NCBI RefSeq assembly: GCF_013167455.1
Contig: NZ_CP038328.1
Length of the DNA stretch: 64,000 bases
Origin: Escherichia coli O157:H7
GTDB taxonomy: Bacteria; Pseudomonadota; Gammaproteobacteria; Enterobacterales; Enterobacteriaceae
Direction: 5' to 3' (one strand)
Positions within the stretch are counted from its first letter, which is position 1, and each line of letters opens with the position of its first letter. Made by a program: the position numbers and the translations under genes. The notes under the pieces were generated by a model that saw only the letters and a list, made by a program, of their open reading frames with translations, was not told where the DNA came from and searched no databases. This document shows positions 3,505 through 60,850 of this stretch, in pieces.

Positions 3505-3520
3505 TGTGATTTGTATCACA
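3505..3520. promoter_or_regulatory. CRP binding site (perfect TGTGA-N6-TCACA)
   Basis: tgtgatttgtatcaca upstream of azuC; a second near-consensus site tgtgatggttgtcata lies at 3535..3550. Confidence 0.6.
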
Positions 3521-11810: not shown

Positions 11811-12589
11811 AACCTGTTCCTTATTCTGTGAACTTCAGGTGACATTAAAGCTTTACTCCTAATGGAGAAACGACGCAATCCCAACTCAGTCAAACAGGTA
11901 AATATTAGTCCGATTATTAGTAAAGACAATTAATCAATCACTCTCGGTGATCATATGATTTCAACTGTAATTATAAGAAAATAATGTACTGATTCCCCGC
12001 ATTAAACAAGTGGTTAATATATGCAAAACATTTTATTAACATTAAGTTGATTGTTGCCTTTCTTTGTATTTAATTAGTTTGTTGTGCGGTAAGTGTCTGT
12101 TTAAAAATAGCTTATCTGGTATTGCATGAAAGTGATTATTTATAGCAGATGATTATTTACGGTGAGTTATTTTAACTGTGCGCAACATCCCATTTCGATT
12201 ATTCCTGTTTCATTTTTGCTTGCTAGCGTAGCGAAAAACTTTTTAACAGATTGAAATACACCCAAAACAAAAGTATGACTTATACATTTATGTTAAGTAA
12301 TTGAGTGTTTTGTGTGATCTGCATCACACATTATTGAAAATCGCAGCCCCCCTCCGTTGTATGTGCGTGTAGTGACGAGTACAGTTGCGTCGATTTAGGA
12401 AAAATCTTAGATAAGTGTAAAGACCCCCTTCTATTTGTAAGGACTTATTAAACCAAAAAGGTGGCTCTGCTTATTGCAGCTTATCGCAACTATTCTAATG
12501 CTAATTATTTTTTACCGGGGCTTCCCGGCGACATCACGGGGTGCGGTGAAACCGCATAAAAATAAAGTTGGTTATTCTGGGTGGGAATA
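11811..12589 (+). promoter_or_regulatory. flhDC master-operon regulatory region and long 5' UTR
   Basis: 780-bp AT-rich intergenic region upstream of flhD; contains the CRP site at 12313..12328; no IS element present. Confidence 0.8.
12313..12328 (+). promoter_or_regulatory. CRP site of the flhDC promoter
   Basis: tgtgatctgcatcaca, perfect TGTGA-N6-TCACA; its centre lies about 270 bp upstream of the flhD ATG, consistent with the known -71.5 site and ~198-nt leader. Confidence 0.75.
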
Positions 12590-18093: not shown

Positions 18094-19755
18094 ATGATTA
18101 ACCGTATCCGCGTAGTCACGCTGTTGGTAATGGTGCTGGGGGTATTCGCACTGTTACAGCTTATTTCCGGCAGTCTGTTTTTTTCTTCCCTTCACCATAG
18201 CCAGAAGAGCTTTGTGGTTTCCAATCAATTACGAGAACAGCAGGGCGAGCTGACGTCAACCTGGGATTTAATGCTGCAAACGCGCATTAACCTGAGTCGT
18301 TCAGCGGTGCGAATGATGATGGATTCCTCCAATCAACAAAGTAATGCCAAAGTTGAATTGCTCGATAGCGCCAGGAAAACATTGGCCCAGGCCGCGACTC
18401 ATTATAAAAAATTCAAAAGCATGGCACCGTTACCTGAAATGGTCGCTACCAGTCGTAATATTGATGAAAAATATAAAAACTATTACACAGCGTTAACTGA
18501 ACTGATTGATTATCTTGATTATGGCAATACTGGAGCTTATTTCGCTCAGCCAACCCAGGGAATGCAAAATGCAATGGGCGAAGCGTTTGCTCAGTACGCC
18601 CTCAGCAGTGAAAAACTGTATCGCGATATCGTCACTGACAACGCAGATGATTACCGATTTGCCCAGTGGCAACTGGCGGTTATCGCGCTGGTGGTGGTAT
18701 TGATTCTGCTGGTGGCGTGGTATGGCATTCGCCGTATGTTGCTTACACCGCTGGCAAAAATTATTGCTCACATTCGCGAAATCGCCGGTGGTAACCTGGC
18801 GAATACCCTGACCATTGACGGGCGCAGTGAAATGGGCGACCTGGCGCAGAGCGTTTCACATATGCAACGCTCTTTGACTGACACCGTCACTCATGTCCGC
18901 GAAGGTTCAGATGCCATCTATGCCGGTACCCGTGAAATTGCGGCGGGCAACACCGATCTTTCCTCCCGTACGGAACAGCAGGCATCCGCGCTGGAAGAAA
19001 CTGCCGCCAGCATGGAGCAGCTCACCGCGACAGTGAAGCAAAACGCCGATAACGCCCGCCAGGCCTCGCAACTGGCGCAAAGTGCCTCCGACACCGCCCA
19101 GCACGGCGGCAAAGTGGTGGATGGCGTAGTGAAAACGATGCATGAGATCGCCGATAGTTCGAAGAAAATCGCCGACATTATCAGCGTAATCGACGGTATT
19201 GCCTTCCAGACTAATATCCTCGCGCTGAATGCCGCTGTTGAAGCCGCGCGAGCGGGTGAACAGGGCCGTGGTTTTGCCGTGGTGGCGGGCGAAGTGCGTA
19301 ATCTTGCCAGTCGTAGCGCCCAGGCGGCAAAAGAGATCAAAGCTCTCATTGAAGACTCCGTCTCGCGCGTTGATACCGGTTCGGTGCTGGTCGAAAGCGC
19401 CGGGGAAACAATGAACAATATCGTCGATGCTGTCACTCGCGTGACTGACATTATGGGCGAGATTGCATCGGCATCGGATGAACAGAGCCGTGGCATTGAT
19501 CAAGTCGCATTGGCGGTTTCGGAAATGGATCACGTCACGCAACAGAACGCATCGCTGGTGCAGGAATCAGCTGCCGCTGCAGCTGCGCTGGAAGAACAGG
19601 CTAGTCGTTTAACGCAAGCGGTTTCCGCGTTTCGTCTGGCAGCCAGCCCACTCACCAATAAACCGCAAACACCATCCCGTCCTGCCAGTGAGCAACCACC
19701 GGCACAGCCACGACTGCGAATTGCTGAACAAGATCCAAACTGGGAAACATTTTGA
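18094..19755 (+). CDS. tar: Methyl-accepting chemotaxis protein II (aspartate/maltose chemoreceptor)
   Basis: 553-aa product from [14 protein letters not shown] signalling domain; C-terminal NWETF pentapeptide. Confidence 0.95.
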
Positions 19756-31509: not shown

Positions 31510-32345
<836 letters not shown>

Positions 32346-36258: not shown

Positions 36259-36357
36259 GCCTGATGCGCTATGCTTATCAGGCCTACATAGTCCCTGCAA
36301 TATATTGAATTAGCAAGGTTTTGTAGGCTGGATAAGGCGTTCACGCCGCATCCGGCA
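36259..36357. repeat. REP elements between torZ and cmoB
   Basis: gcctgatgcgctatgcttatcaggcctaca and gtaggctggataaggcgttcacgccgcatccggca. Confidence 0.6.
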
Positions 36358-44534: not shown

Positions 44535-44741
44535 GTTGTCATTCCATTGAAATAGATACGAATATACGTAATAGCATAAAAAATTTATTTTTTCAGGAGG
44601 CGCAATGTATATTTTTATTACGCATTTCTTCACTGAATATGTAATATTAAAATATTTACTTCCAATATAACCTGTAGAATAAATTATACTGTGCCATTTT
44701 TCAGTTCATCGAGACACCTCGCAAGTTTTTTTCATCCTTCG

Positions 44742-44757
44742 CTGGATATCTATCCAG
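44742..44757 (+). promoter_or_regulatory. LexA (SOS) box of ruvAB
   Basis: ctggatatctatccag, a palindrome of CTGG-N8-CCAG form (near-consensus CTGT-N8-ACAG) about 50 bp upstream of ruvA. Confidence 0.8.
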
Positions 44758-44808
44758 CATTTTTTTATCATACAGCATTATCTTTGATTCATTACGCAGG
44801 AGCGTCAT

Positions 44809-46439: not shown

Positions 46440-46676
46440 GTCGGATTGGTCGCTCGCACCGCATCCGACATTGGCAGTGTGCCTGATGCGACGCTATTCG
46501 CGTCTTATCAGGCATATACCAGAGATAGCGAACCGTAGGTCGGAAAAGGCGCTCGCGCCGCATCCGACATTGGCAGTGTGCCTGATGCGACGCTGTTCGC
46601 GTCTTACCAGGCCTACCAGAGATAGCGAACCGTAGGTCGGATAAGGCGCTCGCGCCGCATCCGACAAATGTGTTCA
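46440..46676. repeat. BIME/REP array: two direct ~100-bp repeat units plus a partial third
   Basis: Unit gctcgc(a/g)ccgcatccgacattggcagtgtgcctgatgcgacgct...cgtaggtcgga(a/t)aaggcg occurs at 46452 and 46551, with a partial copy at 46648. Confidence 0.7.
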
Positions 46677-58824: not shown

Positions 58825-60003
58825 TTAACCCTGTACTTTTACCTGTCCGGCGGCGTGCTTCGCGCGTTCAATGGCGTCAACAACACTCTCTGCAGTAGCC
58901 AGTGCCACCCCCAGACGACGGCTGCCATCAATTTCCGGCTTACCAAATAAACGAATCTGCAAATCTGCGCCTACGGCATTCTGCACATTATCAAACGTGA
59001 CATTCTGACTGGTCAGTTGTGGCAGAATAACGGCAGAAGCTGCAGGACCATACTGACGGATCCCGCCAACCGGAAGTCCGAGGAAGGCACGTACATGCAG
59101 GGCAAACTCTGAGAGATCTTGAGAAATTAACGTCACCATCCCGGTATCATGTGGACGAGGGGAGACCTCACTGAAAATCACCTCATCACCACAGACAAAC
59201 AGCTCGACACCAAACAGACCATAACCGCCCAGTGCCAGCACCACTTTACGGGCAATCTCCTGCGCACGTTCAAGGGCAAGCGGGCTCATTTGCTGTGGTT
59301 GCCAGGATTCACAGTAGTCGCCATCTTCCTGGCGATGACCTACTGGTGCACAGAAATGGACGCCATCCACCGCGCTGACGGTTAGCAGGGTAATTTCGAA
59401 GTCAAACTTAACGACGCCTTCAACAATTACGCGGCCCGCTCCGGCGCGACCGCCTTGCTGAGCGTATTCCCATGCCTGAGCAAGTTGCTCTGCAGAGCGA
59501 ATAAACGTCTGCCCCTTGCCGGAAGAGCTCATCACCGGTTTTACAATGCAGGGATAGCCAATGGCGGCAACCGCCTCGCGGAAAAGGCTTTCGCTATCGG
59601 CAAAACGATAAGTGGAAGTGGGCAGCTGCAGCTCTTCTGCCGCCAGGCGACGGATACCCTCGCGATTCATCGTTAATTTCGTTGCGCGAGCGCAGGGGAC
59701 AACATTCAGTCCTTCCTCTTCAAGTTGGATCAGCATATCGGTGGCAATAGCTTCGATCTCCGGCACGATATAATGTGGTTTTTCCAGTTCAACCACACGG
59801 CGTAATGCATCACCATCAAGCATATTAATGACATGGGAGCGATGCGCGACATGCATGGCTGGTGCGTCGGCATAGCGATCGACGGCAATCACCTCTACGC
59901 CGAGACGCTGACACTCGATTGCCACTTCTTTACCCAGTTCACCGGAGCCTAATAACATCACGCGAGTTGCTGCCGGACGCAGCGCAGTGCCTAATAACGT
60001 CAT
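58825..60003 (-). CDS. purT: Formate-dependent GAR transformylase PurT
   Basis: 392-aa ATP-grasp ORF. Confidence 0.95.
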
Positions 60004-60040
60004 AACGAATATCCCCTGATTAATTCCGCGCGCAGTATAA

Positions 60041-60056
60041 ACGAAAACGTTTGCGT
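60041..60056. promoter_or_regulatory. PurR box upstream of purT
   Basis: acgaaaacgtttgcgt is the exact reverse complement of the PurR consensus ACGCAAACGTTTTCGT. Confidence 0.75.
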
Positions 60057-60101
60057 GTGTCTTTATTGCTGGTGTTGATCTCTCAACCGAAAAGAAATAT
60101 A

Positions 60102-60117
60102 CTGTATAGAATCACAG
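60102..60117 (+). promoter_or_regulatory. LexA (SOS) box of yebG
   Basis: ctgtatagaatcacag matches CTGT-N8-ACAG. Confidence 0.75.
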
Positions 60118-60136
60118 TTATTATGAGAGGCTGCAA

Positions 60137-60427
60137 ATGGCGGTTGAAGTTAAATACGTAGTCATTCGTGAGGGCGAAGAGAAAATGTCGTTTACCAGCA
60201 AAAAGGAAGCCGATGCTTATGACAAAATGCTTGATACGGCGGATCTGCTTGACACCTGGCTGACAAATTCTCCAGTGCAAATGGAAGACGAGCAACGTGA
60301 AGCCCTTTCGCTATGGCTGGCAGAACAAAAAGATGTGCTGAGCACCATTCTGAAAACCGGCAAATTACCGTCCCCACAGGTCGTCGGTGCTGAATCCGAA
60401 GAGGAAGATGCCTCACACGCGGCCTGA
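60137..60427 (+). CDS. yebG: DNA damage-inducible protein YebG
   Basis: 96-aa ORF downstream of a LexA box. Confidence 0.9.
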   Translation: MAVEVKYVVIREGEEKMSFTSKKEADAYDKMLDTADLLDTWLTNSPVQMEDEQREALSLWLAEQKDVLSTILKTGKLPSPQVVGAESEEEDASHAA

Positions 60428-60445
60428 AGCAACTTGCGCTCCTGA

Positions 60446-60850
<405 letters not shown>

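Follow-up and report, generated by a model that had tools for sequence, protein, structure and literature searches.

A PurR operator and a LexA box in the 133-bp spacer between the divergent genes purT and yebG of Escherichia coli O157:H7

Divergent promoters that lie back to back within a short spacer are familiar from araC-araBAD and ilvY-ilvC, where both sides are coupled by a single regulator or by supercoiling. The spacer between purT and yebG of E. coli is likewise arranged back to back. However, it differs from those two systems in that two unrelated repressors act there, each overlapping one promoter. Both operators are of well-described kinds. The operators of the PurR regulon (purF, purL, purHD; PMC3159470) consist of the same 16-bp palindrome, ACGNAAACGTTTGCNT, placed over the core promoter, and they repress when PurR has its corepressor bound; the site at purT shows no difference of substance from them. 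The gammaproteobacterial SOS boxes of recA, sulA and umuDC share with the box at yebG the CTGT-N8-ACAG core, an A/T-rich centre and a position over the -10 element or the start site. Among SOS boxes the K-12 yebG allele is of intermediate strength (heterology index 6.3).

The closest described system is the same locus in E. coli K-12. Belliveau et al. (2018; PNAS 115:E4796; PMC6003448) mutagenised the spacer by Sort-Seq at base-pair resolution and read it out in both directions. The purT side was described as a 'simple repression architecture' with the repressor site between -35 and -10. This site was visible only with adenine and was lost in a purR deletion, and DNA affinity chromatography on it captured PurR with hypoxanthine. 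The yebG side contained LexA and RNA polymerase sites, and yebG was induced by mitomycin C. Cho et al. (2011; PMC3159470) had listed purT among the 'newly found' members of the PurR regulon: PurR occupies the K-12 purT site in vivo (ChIP-chip with and without adenine), and purT expression depends on PurR and adenine and is derepressed in a purR deletion. Induction of yebG by DNA damage in K-12 has been published for AZT, UV and mitomycin C. The K-12 box, TACTGTATAAAATCACAGTT, is among the UV-induced LexA boxes, and yebF is reported to be fully and yebE partly LexA-dependent (PMC3009722). A 2024 AZT study, which also gives the heterology index of the box, reports 4.4-fold induction of yebG by AZT with a 9.7-fold lexA dependence, while purine genes tend to be down-regulated. 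In Salmonella, yebG is induced 41-fold with nalidixic acid. Since the spacer has been dissected in published studies, the finding that we describe here is a published case; the PurR/LexA region between purT and yebG is already known and is of the textbook type.

The stretch of DNA analysed here (the window; 64,000 nucleotides) belongs to the core chromosome of E. coli and is of the O157:H7 type. Positions 59950-60200 are 100% identical to O157:H7 strains and are found in 5,425 of 5,426 complete E. coli genomes, and positions 39298-64000 share 99.96% identity with strain PV15-279. Locally, the genes run zwf-edd-eda, purT (minus strand), yebG, yebF, yebE and ptrB, the last four being on the plus strand. 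Gene calls and NCBIfam matches agree with the preliminary description on the identities of purT and yebG and on the coordinates of the 133-bp divergent spacer (60004-60136), which extends from the purT start codon (complement), ending at 60003, to the yebG ATG at 60137. The description had also placed the two boxes 45 bp apart and the two promoters back to back. The gap is indeed 45 bp (60057-60101), and a consensus scan returned purT hexamers on the minus strand and yebG hexamers on the plus strand that are the same as those assigned by Shimada et al. (2014) from genomic SELEX with RpoD holoenzyme (Table 1). No terminator-like site was seen within 59900-60500, and the purT-yebG spacer gave no match to an RNA family in an Rfam scan.

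Table 1. Features of the purT-yebG region, with positions in the window and conservation of alignment columns among 80 species
Feature	Position	Strand	Column conservation	Description
purT	58825..60003	-		formate-dependent GAR transformylase, 392 aa; NCBIfam equivalog NF006766, 651.9 bits; purT in RefSeq E. coli annotation
purT -10, TATACT	60034..60039	-	96%	consensus scan; Shimada 2014 prediction
PurR operator, ACGAAAACGTTTGCGT	60041..60056		98%	in the 18-bp purT -35/-10 spacer, about -14 to -29
purT -35, AAGACA	60058..60063	-	78%	consensus scan; Shimada 2014
Segment between the -35 hexamers, 11 bp	60064..60074		0.50 bits/column	poorly conserved; all large length changes between species map here
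yebG -35, TTGATC (K-12: TTGATT)	60075..60080	+	TTG 70-80%	consensus scan; Shimada 2014
yebG -10, TATACT	60098..60103	+	96%	consensus scan; Shimada 2014
LexA (SOS) box, TACTGTATAGAATCACAGTT	60100..60119		half-sites 99%	core CTGT-N8-ACAG at 60102-60117; about -10 to +10 of the yebG start
yebG Shine-Dalgarno, GAGAGG	60125..60130	+		read from the sequence
yebG	60137..60427	+		DNA damage-inducible protein, 96 aa, PF07130; NCBIfam NF007475, 206 bits

The PurR site has one mismatch relative to the perfect palindrome, ACGCAAACGTTTGCGT. It was introduced as an 'exact' operator, and this wording is acceptable since the site matches the ChIP-derived consensus ACGNAAACGTTTGCNT in full and is letter for letter the K-12 purT site of Cho et al. 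(2011). It fills 16 of the 18 bases between the purT -35 and -10 hexamers and so overlaps the core promoter, from which transcription would start at about 60027, judging by the position of the -10 hexamer. By its position inside the purT promoter, the PurR box belongs to purT. We scored the site with a matrix built from 27 other published PurR sites, purT being left out, and compared the result with 30 shuffles of the 64-kb window searched on both strands. The site reaches 24.5 bits, higher than every site used for training (maximum 23.1) and than the best match in the shuffles (18.6 bits). Another PurR-like sequence, CGGAAACCGCTTGCGT, is found on the minus strand at 19612-19627, inside the 3' end of tar. 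Its score of 17.4 bits falls in the range of the shuffles, and it is probably a chance match.

The core of the LexA box reads CTGTATAGAATCACAG. A search with the 20-bp LexA consensus allowing up to 3 mismatches gave no match, because the yebG box departs from the idealised palindrome at 5 positions. With a matrix derived from 17 other published E. coli LexA boxes (yebG left out), the 20-mer scores 20.6 bits, above all shuffles (best 17.2 bits) and within the range of the training sites (16.6-28.9 bits), and the LexA box proposed beforehand is thereby borne out. The sole other strong match to the matrix in the window, CGCTGGATATCTATCCAGCA at 44740-44759 upstream of ruvA, is the known SOS box of ruvAB (PMC3009722).

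The yebG hexamers are separated by 17 bp, a spacing that is fixed across species, and the position of the -10 hexamer suggests a transcription start at about 60110. The LexA 20-mer overlaps the -10 element by 4 bp and spans the presumed start, and the LexA box lies 19 bp before the yebG ATG (14-21 bp in other species). The block GGCTGCAA preceding the ATG is highly conserved in the alignment. Relative to a computational prediction from 1997, Belliveau et al. (2018; PMC6003448) moved the RNA polymerase site of yebG 9 bp downstream. An alternative -10 element, TAGAAT, can be read at 60107-60112. However, its -35 element (60084-60089) is unconserved (0.19 bits), and the conservation of the upstream -10 element extends to its TA, which the LexA 20-mer does not cover. 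The pattern of conservation thus favours TTGnnn-17-TATACT over TAGAAT as the probable yebG promoter. In both cases, the site of the polymerase at yebG is overlapped by the LexA box.

To what extent could either motif, or both, be a chance match with no regulatory role? With 0.64 occurrences expected, the window contains two instances of the bare pattern CTGT-N8-ACAG, and a match to the core by itself therefore says little. However, the full-matrix scores of both sites exceed those in every shuffle, the sites are the same or nearly the same as sites that are bound experimentally in K-12, and their columns are 98-99% conserved in 80 species while the flanks drift. Scores, conservation and published binding together refute a chance origin of the PurR and LexA motifs, and we assign it practically no probability.

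For the comparison across species we scanned one genome per species, which yielded 80 yebG loci from the Enterobacteriaceae and an alignment of 81 sequences. purT is divergent from yebG in all 80 species; the spacer measures 127-144 bp in 79 of these and 261 bp in one. The PurR box has the same sequence as in the window in 62 of the 80 species, and in every species it has at most 3 mismatches to the palindrome. A LexA-type box is likewise present throughout, with exact CTGT-N8-ACAG in 75 species and CTGG or CCAG variants in the remaining five. Such variants occur in the known LexA boxes of ruvA and cho and of recN and uvrD (PMC3009722). Conservation in the 80 species is confined to the two -10 elements, the two -35 elements, the two operators and the ribosome-binding site. 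The spacer of the yebG promoter carries 0.33 bits/column, and no further conserved block that could be used as a shared operator was found in the purT-yebG spacer in this alignment. Large inserted residues fall after 60064 and 60068, and the other alignment gaps fall in the two 5' UTRs.

The short distance between the promoters led the preliminary description to propose possible regulatory cross-talk, in which the occupancy or firing of one promoter alters the other. Such coupling could possibly arise from negative supercoiling due to divergent transcription, from competition between two RNA polymerases whose upstream contacts would overlap, or from PurR itself, which lies at about -54 to -69 of yebG. 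PurR bends DNA, and its site falls in the upstream stretch that the alpha subunits of a polymerase bound at yebG would touch. Only 11 bp separate the two -35 hexamers, and about 83 bp the start sites assigned from the hexamers. With such tight packing, the SOS response of yebG might vary in size or heterogeneity with purine status, and purT might be boosted via local negative supercoiling when yebG fires strongly under SOS. Moreover, among the 75 species with an exact CTGT-N8-ACAG, 69 have a gap of 43-46 bp between the boxes, and the literature that we found contains no report of yebG under adenine or of purT under DNA damage.

However, the gap of 43-46 bp needs no special explanation because promoter geometry fixes 34 of the 45 bp, and the sole free part, the 11-bp segment between the -35 hexamers, is unconserved. 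Insertions into this segment seem to have arisen independently at least four times. E. whittamii and Escherichia sp. E1V33 have an 8-bp tandem duplication there, K. pneumoniae has 9 additional base pairs, and Superficieibacter and a related metagenome-assembled genome have 10-12. The largest insertion, 126 bp at the equivalent of about 60064, occurs in K. spallanzanii and places the boxes 172 bp apart; it is bounded by inverted repeats (ATACCCT...AGGGTAT), contains a palindrome and may resemble an enterobacterial repeat of the ERIC type. Centre-to-centre distances between the boxes are consequently 59-62, 69-73 or 188 bp. A fixed helical phasing between the PurR and LexA boxes was considered and rejected, as the phases vary across species, and these differences argue against face-of-helix contact between PurR and LexA. 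The published expression data point the same way. Sort-Seq windows spanning the K-12 spacer gave direction-specific features only, under a figure title stating that the method 'distinguishes directional regulatory features' (Belliveau et al. 2018; PMC6003448). A meta-analysis of stress responses places purT among the down-regulated pur hubs and yebG among the up-regulated DNA-repair genes, such that across stresses purT falls with the pur regulon and yebG rises with the SOS genes.

The operators also separate cleanly where the two genes are not neighbours. A distant YebG homologue with 65% identity retains the arrangement of purT followed by divergent yebG-yebF-yebE, and both boxes are kept. 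Four homologues with 52-60% identity reside in unrelated neighbourhoods with neither purT nor a PurR-like site, and in each of them a canonical LexA box precedes the start codon by 31-46 bp. Two further homologues (55% and 48% identity) likewise have neither purT nor a PurR-like site, and no LexA-type box was found in the 300 bp upstream of them. As the LexA box accompanies distant yebG genes that have no purT, it belongs to yebG. Of the regulatory reading put forward at the outset, the operators, the genes and the back-to-back promoters therefore stand. The cross-talk is unsupported in view of the direction-specific Sort-Seq features, the opposite responses of the two regulons, the insertions of 8-126 bp and the LexA boxes without purT, and we regard coupling of the two promoters as improbable. 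Weak coupling, should it exist, would add a further neighbour effect between divergent bacterial promoters and would introduce no new principle.

A different proposal is that the spacer is controlled mainly by stationary-phase or nucleoid proteins (RpoS holoenzyme, H-NS, SspA), with PurR and LexA being secondary. In genomic SELEX with RpoS holoenzyme, the purT 5' end carries the strongest peak of the K-12 genome (390-fold), and a second one falls in the spacer (PMC5493296). H-NS has been noted for the purT-yebG spacer as well, and purT expression is SspA-dependent. However, all of this comes from binding in vitro or from global data, with sites unmapped here, and the spacer has neither a further conserved block nor a CRP-like site within 2 mismatches, whereas the effects of PurR and LexA have been directly demonstrated in published work. 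We consider predominant control by these other proteins very unlikely. Nothing evident in the sequence from about 59900 to 60136 explains the SELEX peak at the purT 5' end. The search for a CRP site in the spacer was made on account of effects of cAMP that yebG is said to show, and this candidate was rejected. Elsewhere in the window, the CRP consensus TGTGA-N6-TCACA is matched perfectly at 3505-3520 and 12313-12328, upstream of azuC and flhD, which are plausibly known CRP targets.

The explanation that we favour, and hold to be very probable, is that the spacer contains two independent sigma-70 promoters placed back to back, each with its own simple-repression operator. PurR together with hypoxanthine or guanine would bind its operator in the spacer of the purT promoter and keep RNA polymerase off when purines are plentiful. 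On the other side, a LexA dimer would bind over the yebG -10 element and start site and prevent yebG, and probably also yebF and yebE, from being transcribed until LexA undergoes RecA-stimulated self-cleavage in the SOS response. The adjacency of purT and yebG would then be due to an old gene order of the Enterobacteriaceae and not to a shared regulatory device. The two published placements of RNA polymerase at yebG, 9 bp apart, count against this explanation of two independent promoters, and 'simple' repression is not the whole story given the reported inputs from H-NS, RpoS holoenzyme (SELEX) and SspA. Apart from getting the annotation right, the result is of small importance. The purine-supply and DNA-damage regulons, which are unrelated and global, meet here in one short spacer without shared control, a clean and conserved case, and the spacer has already served as a model for quantitative promoter dissection.

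The window and K-12 have the same layout, with PurR between the purT -35 and -10 elements and LexA over the RNA polymerase site of yebG. The sequences of the PurR operator, of the purT -10 and -35 elements and of the yebG -10 element are equal, and the O157-type spacer presumably behaves like that of K-12. Three single-base differences distinguish the two spacers (window/K-12): G/A at 60072, C/T at 60080 and G/A at 60109; therefore, quantitative behaviour could differ. Position 60080 lies in the yebG -35 element, and 60109, adjacent to the presumed start site, is a central base of the LexA box. The change from A in K-12 to G in the window at 60109 lowers the LexA matrix score by 1.6 bits, from 22.2 to 20.6, and sets the lineage of the window apart from other SOS boxes by a G at position 10 of the box. 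Over positions 60081-60150, 290 of 5,420 complete E. coli genomes (about 5%) match the window fully, and among the matches listed the 100%-identical genomes are O157:H7. A natural single-base change in the LexA box of Salmonella shifts basal yebG expression, and by analogy the A-to-G change at 60109 in the O157:H7 lineage might do so too.

In one of 5,426 genomes, that of E. coli MS 21-1 (NZ_CP146670.1), the ISL3-like element ISEc53 is inserted inside the yebG LexA box (equivalent to 60106-60113). The insertion has produced an 8-bp target duplication, ATAAAATC; the operator is split and yebG is parted from its promoter. The element carries a gene of the ClbS/DfsB family, to which the colibactin self-protection protein belongs.

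Two further observations concern the remainder of the window. In the reference O157:H7 strain PV15-279, an Stx2a prophage adjoins yecD at the equivalent of about 39298. At this point the window runs on into core genes (torZY, argS, flhBA, the che genes, flhDC, otsBA and araFGH), and therefore the Stx2a prophage site is unoccupied in the present strain. Rfam matches above the gathering score were obtained in the window for the MicL sRNA (32037-32344, plus strand), C0465 (17971-18046, minus strand), naRNA4 (CssrE; 46538-46613, plus strand) and ES036 (CssrF; 36280-36322, minus strand).
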